Source of the DNA: an uncultured Candidatus Saccharibacteria bacterium | GTDB taxonomy: Bacteria; Patescibacteriota; Minisyncoccia; Phycocordibacterales; JAKAEA01 | Direction: 5' to 3' | Length of the DNA stretch: 64,000 nucleotides | NCBI GenBank assembly: GCA_964577595.1 | Contig: CAZNZK010000001.1 | Span: 66,271-130,270 of the forward strand | Part shown: one piece after another, positions 14,591 through 54,353 of the stretch | How positions within the stretch are numbered: position 1 is the stretch's first letter | How the letters are laid out: every line of letters begins with the position of its first letter | Notes under the pieces: generated by a model | What the model was told of the DNA's origin: nothing | What the model saw: the letters and a program-made list of their open reading frames with translations, nothing else | Databases searched by the model: none | Made by a program: the position numbers and the translations under genes

Positions 14591-14615
14591 AAATTGTGAG
14601 GTTTCGTCACTAGGG

Positions 14616-14936
14616 CTCCCCCGGGAGGATTCGAACCTCCGACCAATCGCTTACACGAGTCCTTCTATTACTAAAAGGGGTGGACTATATCATTTCCATG
14701 AACCGTGAGGTTTTTAGGAATGAGGCGCTTCCGCAAGAATCTTAAAAAATTCTTGAGTACTCCCGCAAGGGGATAGTCTCTACACCTTCAATGACTTTCG
14801 TCAAAGCTTGGCTCGGTATTGCCCACACGATCGTTTATCTTGGGGGGTTCACCGAATTCACCTCATTTTCAACCACTATTTTCAAAGTGGTGCTGCCTTG
14901 AGACAGGCGACTGCTCTACCGCTGAGCTACAGGGGA
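14616..14936 (-). tRNA. tRNA-Asn(GUU) interrupted in the anticodon loop by a 249-nt group I intron (exons 14903..14936 and 14616..14653)
   Basis: Minus-strand 5' exon TCCCCTG-TA-GCTCAGCGGTAGAGC-A-GTCGC-CTGT. 3' exon TAA-GCGAT-TGGTC-GGAGGTTCGAATCCTCC-CGGGGGA-G. Acceptor pairs with one G.U. Joined loop is CUGUUAA. U1-A72 and G73 as in bacterial tRNA-Asn. CCA not encoded. Confidence 0.7.
14654..14902 (-). other. group I self-splicing intron (subgroup IC3-like) within tRNA-Asn
   Basis: 5' exon ends in U, which pairs as U.G in P1 (exon CUGU / internal guide GCAG near the intron 5' end). Intron ends in G. Conserved core elements present: CCGAGCCAAGC, GAAGGTGTAGAGACTA (P7 5' strand) and GATATAGTCC (P7 3' strand / P9.0). 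Confidence 0.65.
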
Positions 14937-18925: not shown

Positions 18926-19109
18926 GGCTTAAATATAGGGGTCAGGGCCTAGTTTTGCAAACCAAACAAAAACTCCGCCGGAAGTATTAAAACTGTGGCG
19001 GAGCTTTGCTTAGCCTTGCGGGGATAACCACCCACTAACCATTGACACGTAGAAGTATAGCAGATTCTCTTTTACAGGCAACTATACGAAATAAAAAGTA
19101 TATTGCCTA

Positions 19110-19178
19110 AATTTTCTTGTAGGGGCGGCGGGAGTTGCACCCGCACGGCTAACGTGTCAATGGTTAGTTGAGACTCTC
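19110..19178 (-). ncRNA. tRNA-like structured RNA, family copy A (acceptor AGGGGCG/CGCCCCT, mini D hairpin, 9-nt loop CAUUGACAC, T-arm GCGGG-UGCAACU-CCCGC)
   Basis: 69-nt cloverleaf-like fold on minus strand. Near-identical to 52761..52831 with compensatory stem changes. Preceded by a conserved promoter-like motif and a leader hairpin. A hairpin plus U-tract terminator lies ~150 nt downstream at ~18957..18995. Confidence 0.45.
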
Positions 19179-19330
19179 TCGCGCCCCTATTACCGAGCAA
19201 TCTTACGAAATTGCCGGTACTTGTATTGTAGGCAGGGGTCGTTAAATTAGTCCTGAAGGAATAGTAAAGAAAAATTAAAATTCAACACTGCTCATTAGAA
19301 AAAACAAGATGTCAAATTTTCTGGTGCCGG

Positions 19331-20869
19331 TTAAAAATCGCGAAGGATGGAGATTTTGGCGCCGAGGGAATTGAGGCGAGCAACAATGTCTTCATAACCG
19401 CGGTTGATGGAATAGATATTACGCAAAACGGAAGTGCCACTGGCCGCGAGCATACCTATTAATAGAATGGCAGCGGGGCGCAAGGCGGGCGGACAAATTA
19501 CTTCCGCGGCCTTCAATGGGGTGATGCCGGTAACATACAAACGGTGCGGATCAACCAAAACGGCTTCAGCGCCGAGCTTTTCAATGTCTTTAGTGTAGAT
19601 AGCCCGCTTTTCATAGGGCCAGTCGTGAATGAGGGTGGTGCCTTTGGCTTGGGTGGCAATGATCGCGAAAAAAGGCAAGTTGTCCATATTTAAGCCGGGG
19701 TAGGGGCGGCATTCAATTTTTTCTTCTAAGGCGGTGAGGCGTGAAGGCAGGGTTTTTAAATCAACGAGTGCCGTGCGTTCGTTGTGCGCGATGTAGCGTT
19801 TCAGGATTTTATAACGGAAGCCCATTTTTTCCAGTTTCAAAAGTTCCAGTTCTAAAAATTCAATTGGCACGCGGCGCAAGGTGATGCTTGAGCGGGTTAC
19901 CACGGCGGCAGTTAAAAAGAACATAGCATCAATAGGGTCTTCAGCTAAGCGGTAGGTTACGGGTGCGTCTATTTTTGTCACGCCGTGCACAACGAGCGTA
20001 GTGGTGCCGATGCCGTCAATTTTCACACCGCATTTTTCCAAAAAGAAACACACTTCCTGCACCATATAATTGGCGGAAGCGTATTTTATGACCGTACGGC
20101 CAGGAATGAGGGCGGCGGCCATAATAGCACTCTCGCTGGCAGTGTCGCTGGATTCATAAAGAATGATTTCTGCTGGCTTAAGCTTGGCGGCCTGAACCTC
20201 GTAGTATTTCTCCTTCGTGGTGATGTTGACGCCAAGTTTTTCCAAAGCATAAAGATGTGGCTTCACGGTGCGTGAACCAAGCCGGCAACCGCCGGGCTGA
20301 GGCAGGCGAAACTTCGGCAGGGCGTGCAAGAGGGGGGCAATAAGCATGACAATGCTTCGGGTTTTTTCCGCCGATTCAGCATTCAGATTCTTCAGATCAA
20401 ATTTTTCCGGTGGTTTAATTTCCAAATCGTTCCCGCTGGCACCTGTCCATTTCACCCCGACGCCGATGGATTGAAAAACTTCAATCATGCGGTTCACTTC
20501 CTCAATTTTCGGCACGCTCTGCAAAACGGTTTTGTTGCGATTTAAAAGAGCGGCGCAGAGCAAACCCATGGCGCCGTTTTTACTCGTTTTAATGGTGATA
20601 TCTCCGGAAAGCGGGCGACCGCCTTCAATCCGAAAATTCAAGGCACCTTTGGAAAGCTGGAGGATGTCGCGGTCCAAGGCGCCACTTAATTTGGCCAGCA
20701 TTTCCGTGGACAAGTTTTGCTCTCCGCGCTCAATGCGAGCAATGGCGCTCTGGCTGGTTTCTAGGCGAAGGGCCAATTCGTCTTGCGTTAAGCCACGGGC
20801 TTGGCGCAAGCGGCTGATAAAGGTGCCTATATCGCTCAAGTGCTTGGCTGTTCGTGGGGCGGCTGGCAT
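19331..20869 (-). CDS. murA: UDP-N-acetylglucosamine 1-carboxyvinyltransferase (MurA) with N-terminal XRE-type HTH domain fusion
   Basis: MurA/EPSP-synthase fold throughout (FRIEGGRPLSGDITIKTSKNGAMGLLCAALL; active-site region QPGGCRLGSRTVKPH). First ~65 aa ISRLRQARGLTQDELALRLETSQSAIARIERGEQNLSTEMLAKLSGAL form a Cro/C1-type HTH. Start inferred at MPAAPRT; the upstream part of the 672-aa track ORF reads through an AT-rich promoter. Confidence 0.65.
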   Translation of the reverse strand: MPAAPRTAKHLSDIGTFISRLRQARGLTQDELALRLETSQSAIARIERGEQNLSTEMLAKLSGALDRDILQLSKGALNFRIEGGRPLSGDITIKTSKNGAMGLLCAALLNRNKTVLQSVPKIEEVNRMIEVFQSIGVGVKWTGASGNDLEIKPPEKFDLKNLNAESAEKTRSIVMLIAPLLHALPKFRLPQPGGCRLGSRTVKPHLYALEKLGVNITTKEKYYEVQAAKLKPAEIILYESSDTASESAIMAAALIPGRTVIKYASANYMVQEVCFFLEKCGVKIDGIGTTTLVVHGVTKIDAPVTYRLAEDPIDAMFFLTAAVVTRSSITLRRVPIEFLELELLKLEKMGFRYKILKRYIAHNERTALVDLKTLPSRLTALEEKIECRPYPGLNMDNLPFFAIIATQAKGTTLIHDWPYEKRAIYTKDIEKLGAEAVLVDPHRLYVTGITPLKAAEVICPPALRPAAILLIGMLAASGTSVLRNIYSINRGYEDIVARLNSLGAKISILRDF

Positions 20870-20996
20870 ATTAAAATAATATATCACATATGGTATATAT
20901 TTAAAAATTGAAAAATGGTGATAACTTTTGTAGGCTTGCGATATTTCTGCAAGGTGATAGCGTAGTGGTTGGATACTTTGTTTTTGGAGGTGCCCT

Positions 20997-21275
20997 ATGG
21001 CTAAAGTACCAACGTCCGATGAGGTTTTTGCGGGTGTAGAGGAAGTTCTCCGTGACACCTTTGTCGCTCCCGGCGCGATCATTAACCGTGATACGCTCCT
21101 CAAGGAAGATCTTAAGGCTGATTCGCTTGATAGCGCGGAGGTCGTCCTCAGCCTGGAGGAGAAGTTCGGGATTGAAATTCCCGACTCTGCGCTGGAGCCG
21201 GTTCCGACAACGGTTGGCGATCTCTGTGCTGTGGTTATGCGTCTCGTCCAGGCCCGGGAGCCAAGCGTTTCGTAA
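20997..21275 (+). CDS. acpP: acyl carrier protein
   Basis: Phosphopantetheine attachment motif LKADSLDSAEVVLSLEEKFGIEIPD. GGAGGTG RBS upstream. Confidence 0.7.
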   Translation: MAKVPTSDEVFAGVEEVLRDTFVAPGAIINRDTLLKEDLKADSLDSAEVVLSLEEKFGIEIPDSALEPVPTTVGDLCAVVMRLVQAREPSVS

Positions 21276-21375
21276 GGAGTTTTTGCAAAATGTCGCAGTA
21301 CTACTCGCCGCCCTATCGTGGGCGGCTTTTCATTTGCCAGAATCTGCATAAAATGGTACTATTCTAGTAGCGTTT

Positions 21376-31372: not shown

Positions 31373-33067
31373 ATGCGTTTCTTTAAACAGCTTCCCCCTT
31401 CATCGTCGGGTATTGATCCCGATCAGGTTTTCCTGGATGCCTCCAACTTGCCGCGTTTTGACCAGCATCAATTTGAAGGTCGCTTGGAAAAGCCCATCAG
31501 TCGTAATACGGTGTTTTTTATGAGCGTTTGCGTTCTCGTTGTTGGTCTTATTTTTATCGGACGTCTTTGGGATTTGCAGGTTGGCCACGGCGTTACCTAT
31601 AAGCAGTTGGCGGAAAGTAATAGTTTACACCCGTCCATTTTATTCGCGTCGCGCGGCGTTATCACCGATCGTAACGGTACTCTTCTTGCTTGGAATGGCG
31701 TTAACCCAGCTAACCCGGCGGTGCCCATGCGTAAGTATAGTACCGCTAATGGCATGTCTACCGTGTTGGGTTATGTAAAATATCCGACCCAAGACACGGC
31801 CGGTTTCTATTATCGCGAAGATTATCTCGGCGTGACCGGCGCGGAAAAATTCTTCAACGAACAGCTAACCGGCCAGAACGGCAGTGAATTGCGCGAACAA
31901 AATGCCGCCGGTGCGGTGCTTTCTGAAAGTGTTATTAAGCCGTCTCAACCGGGTAAAAGCGTCATACTCTCAATTGATAGTCGCGTTCAGTCTGAAATGT
32001 ACTCTGCGCTGGCCGATATTGCCGCTAAGGTGGGCTCGCCGGGCGGGGCCGGGCTCATTATGGACGTACATACTGGTGAAATCATGGCTGACGTCAGTTT
32101 CCCTGAATACAGCTCACAGGTCATGTCTGATGGCGTCAACACTGCCGCCATCAACTCCTATCTCAACGACCCGCGACATCTTCTTCTAGATCGTTCGGTT
32201 GACGGTCTCTATGCCCCTGGATCCATTATTAAGCCAGTTATGGCTCTTGGCGCGCTGGACACTGGCACTATTGCCGCCAGCACCATTCTCTATACTAATG
32301 GTTCAATTTCCGTGCCTAATCCCTACGATCCATCTGTTACGTATGTCTATCACGATTGGCGTAATAACGGCCCGCTTGATATGGAGCATGCCATTGCCGA
32401 ATCTTCCGACGTTTATTTTTATGAAGTTGGTGGTGGCTATCAGGGTCAAAAAGGTATGGGTATCGCCAATATTGATAAATATGCGGCGCTTTTTGGGTAT
32501 GGTCAGCTCGTGCCAAGTACTTTTTTTTCCGGACCGGCCGGTGTCGTGCCTTCACCCGATTGGAAAAAGGCTACGTTTAAGGGTGAAACCTGGACCATCG
32601 GCGATACATATCATAGTGCTATCGGTCAATTTGGCTGGCAAGTCACGCCTTTGCAAGTTTTGCGTGCCATTACTGCTGTGGCCAACGATGGCACACTTCT
32701 CACCCCGACCATTATACTGGGGGATACGAACGCGCTTTCTACAGCCACGCACATTAATTTACCGCAAAGTGAATTTGACGTGATCCACAAAGGCATGCGC
32801 CTTTCGGCTACAATCGGCACTGGCGACGCTCTGAATGTTGGTTATATGCAATTTGCCACCAAAACCGGTACTGCTCAGCTTGGCGCCAATAATGAATTGG
32901 AAAATTCCTGGGTTGGCGGTTTTTGGCCATACGATAATCCCAAGTATGCCTTTGTGATGATGCTGGAGCGTCGTCCTATCGGCAATGTTCTCGGCTCATT
33001 CACTGCCGCTCGCGAGCTTTTCGATTGGATGGCCACAAATACTCCCGAGTACATGGTGAATAACTAG
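31373..33067 (+). CDS. mrdA: penicillin-binding protein 2 (elongasome transpeptidase)
   Basis: SxxK (GSIIKPV), SxN-like (SSD) and KTG (KTGTAQ) transpeptidase motifs. N-terminal TM plus dimerisation domain. mre operon context. Confidence 0.75.
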   Translation: MRFFKQLPPSSSGIDPDQVFLDASNLPRFDQHQFEGRLEKPISRNTVFFMSVCVLVVGLIFIGRLWDLQVGHGVTYKQLAESNSLHPSILFASRGVITDRNGTLLAWNGVNPANPAVPMRKYSTANGMSTVLGYVKYPTQDTAGFYYREDYLGVTGAEKFFNEQLTGQNGSELREQNAAGAVLSESVIKPSQPGKSVILSIDSRVQSEMYSALADIAAKVGSPGGAGLIMDVHTGEIMADVSFPEYSSQVMSDGVNTAAINSYLNDPRHLLLDRSVDGLYAPGSIIKPVMALGALDTGTIAASTILYTNGSISVPNPYDPSVTYVYHDWRNNGPLDMEHAIAESSDVYFYEVGGGYQGQKGMGIANIDKYAALFGYGQLVPSTFFSGPAGVVPSPDWKKATFKGETWTIGDTYHSAIGQFGWQVTPLQVLRAITAVANDGTLLTPTIILGDTNALSTATHINLPQSEFDVIHKGMRLSATIGTGDALNVGYMQFATKTGTAQLGANNELENSWVGGFWPYDNPKYAFVMMLERRPIGNVLGSFTAARELFDWMATNTPEYMVNN

Positions 33068-33069
33068 TA

Positions 33070-33130
33070 GGCAAAAGGGCTTTGACGAAGGCTTTCCCTC
33101 TCGTCCGGCCTGAGAAAAAGTCCTTTTGCC
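33070..33130 (+). repeat. nested-hairpin intergenic repeat, family 1 copy 1 (GGCAAAAGG...AGGC-TTTCCCTCTCGTCCG-GCCT-GAGAAAAAGT-CCTTTTGCC)
   Basis: 61-nt element immediately after the mrdA stop. Conserved core shared with 33713..33773. Outer and inner stems differ between copies but remain paired. Confidence 0.5.
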
Positions 33131-46507: not shown

Positions 46508-46564
46508 TACTGCAATTATAAAAGCAGTCGCTAAAATCTTTCTGAACTTTTATTAAATTAAAAA

Positions 46565-51043: not shown

Positions 51044-51208
51044 ATTCTTTATCTTTTTTTCATATTCATTTTAACATTTATTTAACGACCGCAAATAGTC
51101 AAAACCCTTACAATGTGTGCATATGCTGTGGATTGTGCACTGGAGAATGGTTTTCACGTTAGCACAAGGATTTTTAGTATGAAAATACGGTGTGTTATGA
51201 TTAAAAAA

Positions 51209-51859
51209 ATGAACATAAACCCAGAGGCAAAAAGAATACTGTGTTTTGGAGACTCCAATACTTGGGGGTATATGCCGGGGAGTAAGCACAATCGCTATTC
51301 AGCAGACCTGCGTTGGACGGGCATATTACAAGGGTTATTGGGTACCTCTTACGAAGTTATTGAAGAAGGTCTTAATTCTCGTGGAATCACAAAAGGAGAT
51401 CCACGTCCGGGAAAAGAAGGAAGAAGTTCTATAGAATATATAATCCCTTGTTTAGACTCCCATGACCCGCTGGATTATATAGTTGTATTTCTTGGTACAA
51501 ATGAACTTAAATCGGAATTTAACCTATCTGCTGAGGGTGTTGGCGAGAACTTGGAAATGTTAATAAGAATGATTATTAAACAGCCATCACAATTTAGAGA
51601 TATAAAACCTCAAATACTTATTGTCACCCCTCCCGCTGTAAGCGAAACAACAGAATATGCTTCAAAAGGTGGAAAATATAGAGGCGCACATGAAAAATCC
51701 ATAGAACTTAAAAAGATTTTTAAGAAAGTGGCGGAAGATACTAGTAGTTTGTTTGTTGATATTCAAGACCAGTTGTCGGTGGGAGAGGACGGTGTACACA
51801 TGCTTCCTGTCGGACACAAAAAACTTGCTGAAGCGGTGCGTTCCATCTTGGTTGAGTAA
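51209..51859 (+). CDS. SGNH/GDSL-family hydrolase (esterase/lipase-like)
   Basis: ILCFGDSNTWG (GDS block I), conserved G and N blocks, C-terminal DGVHM (DxxH). AT-rich region. Start inferred at MNINPEAK. Confidence 0.6.
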   Translation: MNINPEAKRILCFGDSNTWGYMPGSKHNRYSADLRWTGILQGLLGTSYEVIEEGLNSRGITKGDPRPGKEGRSSIEYIIPCLDSHDPLDYIVVFLGTNELKSEFNLSAEGVGENLEMLIRMIIKQPSQFRDIKPQILIVTPPAVSETTEYASKGGKYRGAHEKSIELKKIFKKVAEDTSSLFVDIQDQLSVGEDGVHMLPVGHKKLAEAVRSILVE

Positions 51860-51948
51860 ATTAAACAAAAACTACATGTCCCCATCCTTAGGCGTGGGAC
51901 ATGTAGTTTTTGCTATTCTCCACTCCCAATTTGCTATACTTTCAGTAT

Positions 51949-52551
51949 ATGAAAAGCTCATCAAAAGGTTCCGTTAAAACAATATTAATAATAATTATTA
52001 TTCTTGTACTTATTGGTTTTGTTATCTACGCGTATTCGCAGCAGGGGACTAGTCAATCGGCGAATACTCCTACTGCCACAGTTTTCACAAACACAAATCA
52101 AACTCCGGCTGTTCCTCAAACCCCAGCTCCGAAAACTACCCAAACAAACGTCCTTGCTCCTGCAAAGGTCACTCCTTCCGCAAATTCCAGTCTTATTAGC
52201 GTTTTTGCTCCTGTGGCCGGCAGCCAGTTCAAGGTTGCAAAATCAGGGAATTGGACATCAGTACAGCCAATATCAATTATCTGGGCTACGCATTACGCGC
52301 CAGTTAAGGGTCTCTTTGCCTTTCTGGTGCCGAGCAATAAAACTAGTTCTTCTGTTTATTTTGCCGATCAGCTAGGGATTACTGCTAGTGGTGGCAGCAC
52401 CCTCACTATTGGGGGAAATAATCTAACGATCCCTCCTGGTAGTTATCAAATCAAAATTTGTGATGAGGGAAATATCACCAATCCTTCTGCCAATCCTATC
52501 GCCGGCACGGCATGTGGCCTGAGTCCTGTTTTCAGCCTCGTTGCTTCGTAG
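51949..52551 (+). CDS. hypothetical membrane-anchored Thr/Pro-rich protein
   Basis: TM anchor ILIIIIILVLIGFVIYAY followed by a T/P-rich linker and a beta-rich domain. Confidence 0.35.
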   Translation: MKSSSKGSVKTILIIIIILVLIGFVIYAYSQQGTSQSANTPTATVFTNTNQTPAVPQTPAPKTTQTNVLAPAKVTPSANSSLISVFAPVAGSQFKVAKSGNWTSVQPISIIWATHYAPVKGLFAFLVPSNKTSSSVYFADQLGITASGGSTLTIGGNNLTIPPGSYQIKICDEGNITNPSANPIAGTACGLSPVFSLVAS

Positions 52552-52760
52552 GAAAAGAGTTATATATTAAATTGTCTGTTATCACTCGGGTACAAGCGAT
52601 CAATTTTGCGTGTATAGATTTTACGCAGTTCTCTTGACGCACTCAATTTTCTAATGAGCAGTACGCGATTTCATAAAAGATTTAAGTCTCTTTCAGGACT
52701 ATTTTAACAACCCCTGACTAAAATACTAATACCGGCAATTCTGCGGAATTGCTCGGCAAT

Positions 52761-52831
52761 AGGGGCGTGAGAGTAGTCTCAACTAATTCTTGACGTATTA
52801 GTCTTGCGGGGTGCAACTCCCGCCGCCCCTA
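52761..52831 (+). ncRNA. tRNA-like structured RNA, family copy C (loop UCUUGACGU; anticodon-like stem CTAAT/ATTAG compensatory to copy A CTAAC/GTTAG)
   Basis: Shares about 85% identity with copy A from 52694 (CAGGACTATTTTAACAACCCCTGACTAAAATAC promoter-like motif) through the tRNA-like domain, downstream conserved blocks and the terminator at ~52958..52990. Confidence 0.45.
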
Positions 52832-52991
52832 CCACAAAAATAGTCAACAACACAAATTTTTTATTGCGTATAGTTGCTTGTATGTGGGGATCTGTTATAC
52901 TCCCTTAACATGTCAAGAGTTAGTTAGGGATTATATCTCTAAGACTAAGCCAAAGACTCCGCTAGGTGTAATAACTAGGCGGGGTTTTTGT

Positions 52992-54353
52992 TTATCTTAA
53001 ACTTTCAATAATGGAGCCGCTGGCAATATCTTTCACCTCAAACCCTAGTTTCTGAATTTTTTTGCGAATATCATCGGCATCATTCCAGCGTTTTTCGGCG
53101 CGGGCCTGTTCGCGTTCAGTCGTGAGTTTTTTGACTTCTTCTGGAATAGTAATGTGGTGCTTCTGGCCAAGTTGGAGGCCAAGAACCGTATCAAATTTCA
53201 AAATAGTTGCTTTTTTGGTGCCGGCAGAAAGTTTCTGATCGCCAACCATCTCCCACACAATAGCCAAGGCTTGCGGGGTGTTCAAGTCGTCATTAACAGC
53301 ATTCAAAAATGCTTTTTCGTATCTTCCAGTATTTTCAGTTGTCTCGCCATGCCATTCTTGCGTGTATCCCTGAAGCCGCTTATAGGCCTGCCCAGCCGCT
53401 TCGAGCGCTTCCCAGCTAAAATTCATCGGGGTGCGGTAATGGCCGCCAAGGAGCCAGTAGCGATAGGCGAGAGGGTTAATGCCGCGTTCAGTGATGCTGG
53501 CGAGCGTAATGCCCGTGCCTTCTGATTTCGCCATTTTACTCTCTCCCACATTCACAAAAGCATTATGGAGCCAGTAATTTACGAAGGGCCCGCCATGCGC
53601 GCATTCCGACTGGGCGATTTCGTTATTATGGTGGATCGGCGCTAAATCCATGCCGCCGGTGTGAATGTCAAAATGCGGGCCGAGGTAGCGTTCACTCATG
53701 GCCGAGCACTCTATATGCCAGCCAGGGAAACCCTTACCCCAAGGACTTTCGTAGCCAATAGAGTGATTGAATTTCCACAGAGCAAAATCTTTTTGGTTTT
53801 TCTTCTCGCTTTTGAGACCGATACGCGATTCGTCGCCGCCGGTGCCGCCCAGCTTGCCGTAGTGTGAGTCCTTGCTTGTGTCAAAATAAAGGCCATCGGA
53901 AGTTTTGTAGGTAAAACCTTTCTTCTCCAGCTTTTCAATAAGCTTTATGTCTTCGGAAATGTGTTGGGAAGCACGGGGCAATTCGTGCGGAGGCAGAATA
54001 TTGAGCGCCGCGATGTCGGCCTGGAATTTTTTAGTGTAAAAATCGGTTAGTCCACTCATGGCCTCCAACGTAATGGGCTTGCCTTCGCGCTTCAATCCTC
54101 GGATGATCTTATCCTCACCTTCGTCGTTGTCGCCGCCAATGCCAACGTCGGTGATATTCACCACTTGGCGCACGGCGAAACTATTATATTCAAAAACGCG
54201 CCGAACGATGTCGGAAAGCACAAATGAGCGCAAGTTACCGATATGTGCGTAATCATAGACCGTTGGCCCACAGGAATAAAGGCCGACATGGCCGACCTTA
54301 ATGGGCGTAAATAGCTCTTTTTTCTTGGTTAATGAGTTTGTCAATTCAATCAT
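52992..54353 (-). CDS. cysS: cysteinyl-tRNA synthetase
   Basis: Start inferred at MIELTNSLTKKKELFTPIKVGHVGLYSCGPTVYDYAHIGN (HIGH); KMAKSEG (KMSKS); C-terminal DALR-like domain. Track ORF extends 44 codons further upstream. Confidence 0.8.
   Translation of the reverse strand: MIELTNSLTKKKELFTPIKVGHVGLYSCGPTVYDYAHIGNLRSFVLSDIVRRVFEYNSFAVRQVVNITDVGIGGDNDEGEDKIIRGLKREGKPITLEAMSGLTDFYTKKFQADIAALNILPPHELPRASQHISEDIKLIEKLEKKGFTYKTSDGLYFDTSKDSHYGKLGGTGGDESRIGLKSEKKNQKDFALWKFNHSIGYESPWGKGFPGWHIECSAMSERYLGPHFDIHTGGMDLAPIHHNNEIAQSECAHGGPFVNYWLHNAFVNVGESKMAKSEGTGITLASITERGINPLAYRYWLLGGHYRTPMNFSWEALEAAGQAYKRLQGYTQEWHGETTENTGRYEKAFLNAVNDDLNTPQALAIVWEMVGDQKLSAGTKKATILKFDTVLGLQLGQKHHITIPEEVKKLTTEREQARAEKRWNDADDIRKKIQKLGFEVKDIASGSIIESLR

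Follow-up and report, generated by a model that had tools for sequence, protein, structure and literature searches.

The stretch of DNA analysed here, 64,000 nucleotides long and called the window throughout, comes from an uncultured Candidatus Saccharibacteria bacterium and contains three copies, A, C and T, of a non-coding cassette in which a tRNA-like RNA is followed by a segment complementary to its own anticodon-like loop. The window sequence is contained in contig k141_101130 of the European Nucleotide Archive (ENA), sample ERZ27245386, and two more copies, D and E, are found in neighbouring sequence of the same assembly. The genome also includes contig k141_782318, and its source habitats are represented by ENA ERZ27245386 and ERZ27245399, by 3300028800 of the Joint Genome Institute (JGI) and by SRR8464963. 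In all, about 170 kb of genome sequence was examined, and in it one population carries at least five paralogous cassettes, each of about 400 bp, which together take up about 2 kb. All five are intergenic and the genes around them are unrelated housekeeping genes. The next gene is convergent in the case of C, D, T and E, and only copy A precedes a gene on its own strand, namely, priA, which has a promoter-like site of its own. The Candidate Phyla Radiation (CPR), or Patescibacteria, to which such bacteria belong, have minimal genomes, and to our knowledge their RNA regulators are almost entirely uncharacterized.

The order of elements is the same in all five copies: a promoter (P1), a leader hairpin, a cloverleaf of 69-71 nt (RNA1), a second, predicted promoter (P2) and an RNA that ends in a terminator (RNA2). 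The coordinates of the three copies in the window are given in Table 1. A preliminary description of this DNA had assigned to copy C a promoter-like motif, a leader hairpin, a tRNA-like domain, a CTAAT/UCUUGACGU/ATTAG stem-loop and a terminator, and all of these are present, the tRNA-like domain with exactly the ends given before, which the covariance model match reproduces. The identity of about 85% between C and A that had been quoted holds only inside the tRNA-like domain (60/71 columns, counted by hand); over positions 52694-52990 it is 75% (216/288). The leader hairpin of C stops 4 nt upstream of the tRNA-like domain, whose acceptor stem is AGGGGCG/CGCCCCU with A73 and an encoded CCA, whose D-stem has 4 bp and whose T-arm is GCGGG/CCCGC with a loop of the UGCAACU type. 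The P2 of C was missed by the promoter scan, its first hexamer (3/6) being under the threshold, and the scan did call the P2 of A (TTGCCT-16-TATACT with TG). In the anticodon-like arm of C, the anti-loop segment complements the 5' strand of the stem, the loop and some of the 3' strand; it begins 5 nt 3' of the P2 -10 hexamer.

Table 1. Positions of the cassettes and their parts in the window (MFE, minimum free energy).
Feature	Position	Strand	Description
Copy C, cassette	52624-53010	+	
C, upstream region	52634..52686	+	TTGACG..TTTTCTAATGAGCAGT box, then A/T-rich GATTTCATAAAAGATTTAAG, UP-element-like
C, promoter P1	52692..52726	+	TTCAGGACTATTTTAACAACCCCTGAC TAAAAT AC; -10 hexamer 52719-52724
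C, 5' leader hairpin	52732..52756	+	CCGGCAAUU-cugcgg-AAUUGCUCGG; seen in MFE fold
C, tRNA-like cloverleaf (RNA1), 71 nt	52761..52831	+	covariance model R1, 80.6 bits, identical ends
C, anticodon-like arm	52783..52801	+	stem CUAAU/AUUAG, 9-nt loop UCUUGACGU at 52788-52796
C, predicted internal promoter P2	52874..52901	+	TTGCTT - 16 nt - (TGt)TATACT, read from sequence
C, anti-loop segment	52907..52923	+	AACAUGUCAAGAGUUAG; downstream complement AACATGTCAAGAGTTAG
C, predicted RNA2, about 87 nt	52907..52993	+	5' anti-loop seed, hairpin 52924-52942, AAGACUAAGCCAAAG, intrinsic terminator about 52955-52993
Copy A, cassette	18940..19324	-	P1 19233-19257, tRNA-like domain 19120-19188, loop arm 19149-19167
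Copy A, 3' half		-	P2 19054-19081, anti-loop 19034-19050, terminator about 18964-19004
Copy T, cassette	56200..56582	-	P1 56490-56514, tRNA-like domain 56364-56434

Copy T is the third match to the P1 motif in the window and lies where ARAGORN calls its sole tRNA gene, a tRNA-Thr(cgt) at 56363-56434 on the minus strand, with the P1 match 5' of it. The alignment shows that copy T has the complete cassette architecture: its domain has G3.U70, A73 and the 9-nt loop CUUCGUCAA, its P2 is TTGCTT-17-TATACT, and its RNA2 carries UUGGUGGA, a wobble complement, and UUGACGA, a perfect 7-mer, followed by the terminator. As a tRNA it is aberrant, with C8, a weak D-stem, a C.A at the stem end and C at position 37, and it is likely that it has been mis-annotated as a normal tRNA. 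Copy D was the one locus returned by a metagenome scan with the P1 motif; its contig, 500 kb long, belongs to the ENA assembly that also contains the window, so D is a paralogue in the same genome. Copy E was found by extending the contig of the window by 10 kb. The paralogues are 65-85% identical to one another, and each copy is identical across four independent samples, so that there is no signal of micro-evolution.

A covariance model of the cloverleaf was built from A, C, D and E with copy T held out, and this model recovered copy T at 36.5 bits. In the alignment derived from the model every one of the 80 cells is paired, and double changes are seen at 10 of 16 pairs; none of 500 shuffles reached these values, and slid registers gave 44-60% pairing. 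When the D-stem (3-5 bp, 18/19 cells paired) was included in a manual alignment, 102 of 103 cells were paired. All four stems covary. The compensatory change that had been described between A and C in the anticodon-like stem is borne out and extended, as all five pairs of this stem covary across the five paralogues. Judged by this covariation, which we regard as proof, the cloverleaf is real.

The loop of the anticodon-like arm is 9 nt long in 5/5 copies, position 3 being always U and position 7 always C, and its positions 2-5 read CUUG, CUCG, UUCG, CUUA and AUUG, four of which are YUNR. The equivalent of U33 is present and the equivalent of position 37 is C in every copy, so there is neither a 7-nt loop nor a purine 37. 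Because it has 9 nt and a YUNR-like U-turn motif, it is no ordinary decoding loop. Truncated D arms are a feature of A, C, D and E, and G3.U70 together with A73 is found in D, T and E. The acceptor stem of A and C (AGGGGCG/CGCCCCU) and the UGCAAYU T-loop match those of tRNA-Trp, which suggests that RNA1 is descended from tRNA genes; one Saccharibacteria tRNA-Trp scores 36 bits on the family model.

The preliminary description had also reported that a segment downstream is complementary to the loop region of its own copy, with a perfect match in A and an imperfect one in C. Both matches were confirmed. In A the complement to the loop arm is 17/17, and in C there are 14 Watson-Crick pairs, 2 G-U pairs and 1 mismatch, with a contiguous run of 16 bp. 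The arm of D is wholly different (stem CCUGU, loop UCUCGACAG) and its partner, UGUCGAGAACAGG, is different with it, giving 13 Watson-Crick pairs and 1 G-U in 14 bp. The G-U pairs of C and D work only as RNA and only on the strand on which the cassettes are read, which fits pairing of RNA and not of DNA. One detail has to be corrected: the loops of A and C, which had been said to differ completely, have a central UUGAC in common (5/9 positions) and differ at the two outer positions on each side. In the helix between loop and partner, A and C differ by 3 fully compensatory changes and 2 one-sided changes that preserve a wobble pair.

The long-range helix was tested on a MAFFT alignment of C, A, D and T that was not fitted to the helix and that comprises 14 pairs in 56 cells. 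Of these cells 94.6% pair, and 9/14 pairs have changed on both sides; none of 500 shuffles reached the observed values and slid registers gave 31-45% pairing. The cognate duplexes of A, C and D have energies of -28.3, -21.6 and -26.9 kcal/mol, respectively, against -7 to -19 for non-cognate ones. Shuffles of the partner RNA reached the cognate energy in 0/2000 cases for A, in 0/2000 for C and in at most 1/2000 overall when D is included. The cognate pair is the best of its row for A, C, D and T, and not for E. These values come from an analysis restricted to the arms, which replaced duplexfold on whole RNAs, the latter being uninformative because the GC-rich arms pair promiscuously.

In copies T and E the pairing is arranged differently. 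At the homologous site, copy T (UUGGUGGA) forms 5 Watson-Crick and 3 G-U pairs with its loop, and E forms 6 pairs. Both have in addition a second site, a perfect 7-mer (UUGACGA in T, UUGGUAA in E) that is directly 3' of the conserved GGCCCAAUU, lies in the single-stranded linker upstream of the terminator and matches loop positions 3-9. The two loops differ at three positions of this 7-mer and the partners carry three compensating changes. What counts for this second site is its homologous placement and the triple compensation.

Taken together, long-range pairing under selection is well supported by these comparisons. The contention of the preliminary description that loop and distal partner co-vary therefore stands: D has changed in step, and in the alignment of C, A, D and T double changes are seen at 9/14 pairs. 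Among the grounds that it had named for failure are additional copies in which the two segments do not co-vary and a recent duplication followed by drift. Copy D co-varies, and T and E do so through the shorter second site of 7 nt; recent duplication with drift is not what is seen because the paralogues are old, as their identities indicate, and have compensatory changes. That each copy keeps both the tRNA shape and a private partner implies a selected RNA-RNA function.

The upstream parts of the cassettes are also shared. A box, TTGACR..TTTTCTAATGAGCA, is kept in four cassettes and is degenerate in E (TTGTCAAC), and the A/T-rich block that follows it is complete in C, D and T, partial in E and different in A. 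The consensus of P1 is TTCAG-N5-(A)TTTTAAC(A/G)AC-N7/8-TAnnnT, which is matched by A, C and T in the window with a chance expectation of 0. The same P1 core is found at 46513-46546 (minus strand), 5' of a T2SSE/pilB-like gene, and a pilin-like gene is preceded by a TTGACA..TTTTCTAATGAGCAAT box and a looser P1 core (L052, 19283-19385). The class as a whole can be written TTCAG-N5-TTTTARCRAC-N7/8-TAnnnT. On this sequence evidence P1 belongs to a genuine promoter class of this organism, and the fact that it is shared hints at co-regulation of the cassettes with type IV pili. A leader hairpin stem of the GGCAA...UUGCC type is present in 5/5 leaders, with UUGCU in A and C.

Between the cloverleaf and P2 there is a spacer of 10-45 nt. 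P2 consists of TTGCNN or TTGACG, 16-17 nt and TATACT or TAAAAT, with an extended TG in A and C; both hexamers are kept in 5/5 copies and the sequence of the spacer between them is variable. The predicted RNA2 is 85-105 nt long and ends in a hairpin and a U-run in 5/5 copies, the tail being of the GUUUUUGUUU type in four of them and CUUUUGUGU in E. P2, from which RNA2 would start, lies about 40-70 nt beyond the 3' end of RNA1 in A, C and D; for T and E this distance is about 25-35 nt. The complement, or seed, of A, C and D starts 3-7 nt 3' of the P2 -10 hexamer, which is the predicted 5' end of RNA2. When RNA2 is folded alone the seed is mostly unpaired, the mean unpaired probability being 0.6-0.74 in D, T and E.

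We compared the cassettes with known RNA families. A scan with Rfam 15 at gathering thresholds of the window and three further loci returned only a group I intron and one tRNA, and in E-value scans of A, C, T and E only sub-threshold noise was seen (Tymo_tRNA-like, Thr_leader, mascRNA). Thr_leader reached 31.7 bits against a gathering score of 55, and these leader matches are driven by the terminator. The Rfam tRNA model does not match A, C, T, D or E at gathering; in the E<=10 scans RF00005 does not appear for the regions of A, C or E, and for copy T one overlapping match of the tmRNA/tRNA clan was suppressed. ARAGORN called only copy T and missed A and C even at a lowered threshold. Of the traits of a canonical tRNA the cassettes have the cloverleaf with four stems, and they lack detection by the model and a 7-nt loop with purine 37. 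A tandem of a tRNA-like RNA and an anti-loop partner is found neither in Rfam nor in the literature searched, and a literature search on tRNA-like RNAs (in Patescibacteria, with nine-nucleotide anticodon loops, or in connection with antisense) gave nothing relevant. We conclude that the cassette family is real and previously undescribed.

Other kinds of element were considered and set aside. A transfer-messenger RNA (tmRNA), one-piece or permuted, was rejected because ARAGORN found none, Rfam gave short T-arm fragments of 10-17 bits against a gathering score of 47, and inspection of RNA2 showed no conserved open reading frame (ORF). A split or permuted tRNA was likewise rejected. So were remnants of phage attachment sites, because these would leave direct and not inverted repeats. 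Type I or type III toxin-antitoxin systems do not fit as there is no conserved ORF in or beside the cassettes and the neighbours are unrelated housekeeping genes.

Two further tRNA genes deserve mention in their own right. The tRNA-Asn(GUU) gene of the window (14615-14936, minus strand) carries a 249-nt group I intron in its anticodon loop, placed between U35 and U36 (exon 1, 14936-14903; intron, 14902-14654; exon 2, 14653-14615), and at the syntenic site in three relatives the gene is uninterrupted. On a second contig (L014, 5782-5863, minus strand) an 82-nt tRNA that is recognized by Rfam (49 bits) and missed by ARAGORN lies in a gene-free stretch of 1.4 kb.

Further copies were sought in several collections. 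In the window, neither a cassette hidden Markov model (HMM) nor a covariance model gave another copy, and nhmmer together with the covariance model found no cassette in about 95 kb from three relatives. The nearest database relatives of the cysS and priA products are 72-75% identical and belong to metagenome-assembled genomes labelled Parcubacteria, Paceibacterota or Patescibacteria, and the three relatives compared are at this same distance in protein identity. In a scan of genome contigs with an acceptor/T-loop pattern only genuine tRNAs (Trp, Lys) and chance matches were seen, the source genome itself not being among the contigs returned. The metagenome collection that was scanned is evidently incomplete, as JGI contigs that carry C and T were not returned from it. 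Among viral contigs the P1 motif gave 0 matches and the UP-like 18-mer gave 30 unrelated ones, 0 of which fit the cassette HMM, and blastn against phages and plasmids gave nothing. Occurrence in a single species reflects the scope of these searches, since the scan patterns could catch only close relatives.

The orthologous intergenic sites of the relatives, murA-priA for A, cysS-dnaB for C and L27-L9 for copy T, are short and empty. No target-site duplications or terminal inverted repeats were found at the borders when the filled sites were compared with the empty ones of the relatives, with the limit that the borders are imprecise because the relatives are distant. For the same reason an empty site is no proof of recent mobility. 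Copy C sits in a block of about 1.9 kb (51113-52990; L003, 11413-13362) with a GDSL hydrolase and an orphan ORF of 213 aa, and two relatives lack this block between cysS and dnaB. In 5.8 billion proteins no homologue of the 213-aa product was found beyond this population; as an orphan it offers no route to orthologous loci. One relative has, at the murA-priA site, a spacer of about 190 bp (L013, 8310-8500) with a TATACT -10-like site and an intrinsic terminator, which may be an unrelated small RNA at the position of A. The spacer shows no significant similarity to the cassettes, and a link to RNA2 through a shared CUGGCCCAAU was dropped, the blastn E-values being 0.01-0.4. Also in the window, at 19331-21349 on the minus strand, is a gene for a MurA-type enolpyruvyl transferase (EPSP_synthase fold) that carries an XRE-type HTH_3 domain (residues ~175-230) ahead of the enzyme domain, a fusion that is conserved in the relatives.

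As our preferred reading, which we hold tentatively, we propose that each cassette codes for two RNAs, a tRNA mimic (RNA1) and a dedicated anti-loop small RNA (RNA2) that acts as its antagonist or mask. A strong P1 would drive the leader hairpin and the tRNA-derived cloverleaf, and we infer that RNA1 is released by processing of the RNase P and RNase Z type and by CCA addition. P2, which is of the sigma70 type, would start the terminator-ended RNA2, and because this conserved second promoter lies between the pairing partners, the downstream partner probably forms the 5' end of an independent small RNA. Over 14-17 bp (A, C and D), RNA2 would begin with a complement to the loop and the 5' stem strand of the same cassette. 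The loop would nucleate pairing with the cognate RNA2 and the duplex would then spread into the stem, destroying the anticodon-like arm, so that RNA2 would mask or inactivate its own tRNA mimic or mark it for a double-strand RNase. P2 would give independent control of the antagonist, and in transcripts that read through from P1 the same pairing would be possible in cis. We favour RNA2 as a dedicated antagonist because its 5' seed meets a U-turn loop and full pairing opens the anticodon-like stem. As for RNA1, it may be a chargeable mimic that acts in translation or on tRNA-dependent transferases, a decoy, or a sponge for RNA2.

Several observations weigh against this two-RNA proposal. P2 is a consensus match only, and there is no intrinsic terminator between RNA1 and P2, so the covariation would be explained equally well by a single transcript of ~260 nt that forms an intramolecular helix. 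The MFE folds of the precursors of A, C and D do form the long-range helix. Taken singly, the 7-nt matches of T and E do not reach significance (p about 0.07), the analysis identified neither a protein partner nor a target of the cassettes, and the phylogenetic depth is small because there are five distinct sequences from one population that are identical between samples. The main rival is one RNA of about 250-265 nt, running from P1 to the terminator, in which an alternative intramolecular helix would gate RNase P/Z processing or serve as a structural switch, the P2 hexamers being RNA sequence motifs or an auxiliary promoter. Covariation speaks for pairing in cis as much as in trans. What makes us regard the one-RNA explanation as rather unlikely is that the sequence between the partners has the pattern of a promoter, with two kept hexamers at a fixed spacing and a variable spacer, and no consistent covarying structure is visible there, and that the complement in A, C and D is placed at the predicted +1 of P2. 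A switch in cis and an antagonist in trans are not exclusive.

If the roles were reversed, RNA2 would be a trans-acting small RNA with mRNA targets and RNA1 its dedicated sponge or decoy, and the layout of RNA2, with a single-stranded seed, one or more hairpins and a terminator, is indeed that of a classic small RNA; that the pairs are cognate-specific also agrees with this. Against such targets, no extra matches of >=12 nt to the arms of A, C, D and E were found in the about 170 kb, and we consider the reversal improbable. For copy T there is a single perfect 12-nt complement to its anticodon-like arm, UUGACGAAGGCU at 33082-33093 (plus strand), which lies in a hairpin of the 3' untranslated region after the ORF at 31373-33067, and chance alone would give about one such match in the sequence examined. 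That the cassettes contain working, unusual decoding tRNAs, accepting Ala by G3.U70 and with Ser/Thr/Val-like triplets after U33, the complement being incidental or regulatory, is suggested by the tRNA-Thr(cgt) call for copy T, by G3.U70 and A73 in D, T and E, by the invariant U at the U33 equivalent and by the likeness to tRNA-Trp described above. It seems quite improbable in view of the 9-nt loops with C at the position-37 equivalent in all copies, the truncated D arms in A, C, D and E, the failure of the Rfam tRNA model to match any of the five at gathering, and the presence of canonical tRNAs elsewhere in the genome.

We have also asked whether the cassettes could be non-functional or selfish repeats, either decaying tRNA pseudogenes or elements like miniature inverted-repeat transposable elements (MITEs) or short interspersed nuclear elements (SINEs), that inherited the complementarity of a founder. 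A, C and T are absent at the orthologous sites of relatives, all five copies are intergenic with four convergent to the downstream gene, and no copies were found outside this population, all of which would suit such repeats. Nevertheless, the copies, 65-85% identical, keep their helices by compensatory changes and differ in their loop/partner pairs, which drift would break, and by eye no terminal inverted repeats or target-site duplications are seen at the borders; a MITE-like element was rejected on the same comparison with the empty sites of relatives, distant as these are and imprecise as the borders are. Repeats of this kind are thus very improbable. A function at the level of DNA, in which inverted repeats serve a recombinase (an invertible P2) or a DNA-binding protein and are kept matched by recombination or template switching, is extremely unlikely. 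In its favour are the 17/17 inverted repeat of A, which flanks a promoter-bearing segment of ~100 bp, and the TTGAC core common to the arms of A and C. Formally, inverted repeats flank the promoter in A, C and D, but those of C (14/17) and D (13/14) are imperfect as DNA and gain G-U pairs as RNA, and the perfect complement of T and E is just 7 nt and is placed differently, beyond the RNA2 body. In addition, the left arm is inside a cloverleaf with four covarying stems, no recombinase gene adjoins any of the five copies, and the orientation of the cassettes is a single one in all assemblies.

Among known systems, the two-RNA proposal resembles the T-box riboswitch (RF00230) in that a tRNA-shaped RNA has its anticodon loop read, through pairing, by a dedicated RNA that ends in an intrinsic terminator, and the RNA2 of T and E has a UGGU that could pair with an ACCA 3' end. 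However, the cassettes have no Stem I or specifier-loop architecture, their complement is 7-17 nt instead of 3-4 nt, and the order of elements is reversed, with four of the five lacking a downstream gene on the same strand. That they are T-boxes was rejected: the E<=10 scans of the A, C, T and E regions did not give RF00230, and a leader position is excluded by the convergent genes of C, D, T and E and, for A, by the promoter-like site that priA has of its own.

For the reversed roles the closest comparison is the 3' external transcribed spacer of a tRNA operon, which sponges small RNAs that are encoded elsewhere and have mRNA regulons. There, too, a tRNA transcription unit supplies the RNA segment that pairs with a small RNA, but it is the spacer that pairs, whereas here it is the tRNA body. 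The tymovirus tRNA-like structure (RF00233) is the best sub-threshold match in Rfam (16.1, 20.4 and 11.4 bits against a gathering score of 40); its T-arm GGGUGCAACUCCC is identical and its order of arms similar, but the cassette acceptor is a plain 7-bp helix and not a pseudoknot, and the context is a bacterial chromosome. The same T-loop is also found in one genuine CPR tRNA-Trp, and by this comparison a CPR tRNA-Trp is more likely to be the ancestor than the viral structure.

Antisense RNA pairs, such as those of plasmid copy control and type I antitoxins, are closer in principle. U-turn loops of the YUNR type are recognition elements of antisense RNAs (PMC4485353, PMC6562991), and in the cassettes there is a YUNR-type loop, an accessible partner stretch and cognate specificity. 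In both cases a structured, U-turn-like loop faces a complementary single-stranded stretch, the pairing is cognate-specific with paralogous pairs that have diverged to orthogonality, and the complement is in the 5' tail of the partner, as in RNAII of pMV158. They differ in that the cassette RNAs are in tandem on the same strand and do not overlap on opposite strands, that the loop is carried by a tRNA cloverleaf, and that there is no toxin ORF, replication gene or other mRNA target. The tRNA-Other of Bacillus cereus (PMC3399842) is a pseudo-tRNA, or non-translational tRNA-like RNA, and like RNA1 it derives from a tRNA, is encoded in the chromosome, has an aberrant anticodon arm and probably takes no part in decoding. 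Pseudo-tRNAs of this kind are, however, single genes without a partner RNA, whereas the cassettes are at least five paralogues with co-varying partners and a shared promoter module.

A more far-reaching version of the two-RNA proposal is that the cassettes are all-RNA control or addiction modules, in which a chargeable tRNA mimic would act on the translation machinery or on a tRNA-dependent enzyme and would be switched off by its own anti-anticodon small RNA, maybe in co-regulation with the pilus. We regard this as unlikely. Three of the five mimics have the alanine identity pair G3.U70 together with A73, and each U-turn loop is one mutation away from an Ala anticodon. We know of no organism in which programmable masking of an anticodon, or a pair made of an RNA toxin and an RNA antitoxin, has been described.

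For annotation, the cassettes call for caution, since one member of the family is called as tRNA-Thr. If the partner does mask the anticodon-like loop, RNA2 would be the first antagonist known to act in trans on a tRNA-shaped RNA to which it is dedicated, and the paralogues would provide, on a tRNA scaffold, a naturally occurring collection of orthogonal RNA-RNA pairs. In these bacteria the cassettes offer a testable entry point into tRNA mimics with non-translational roles.

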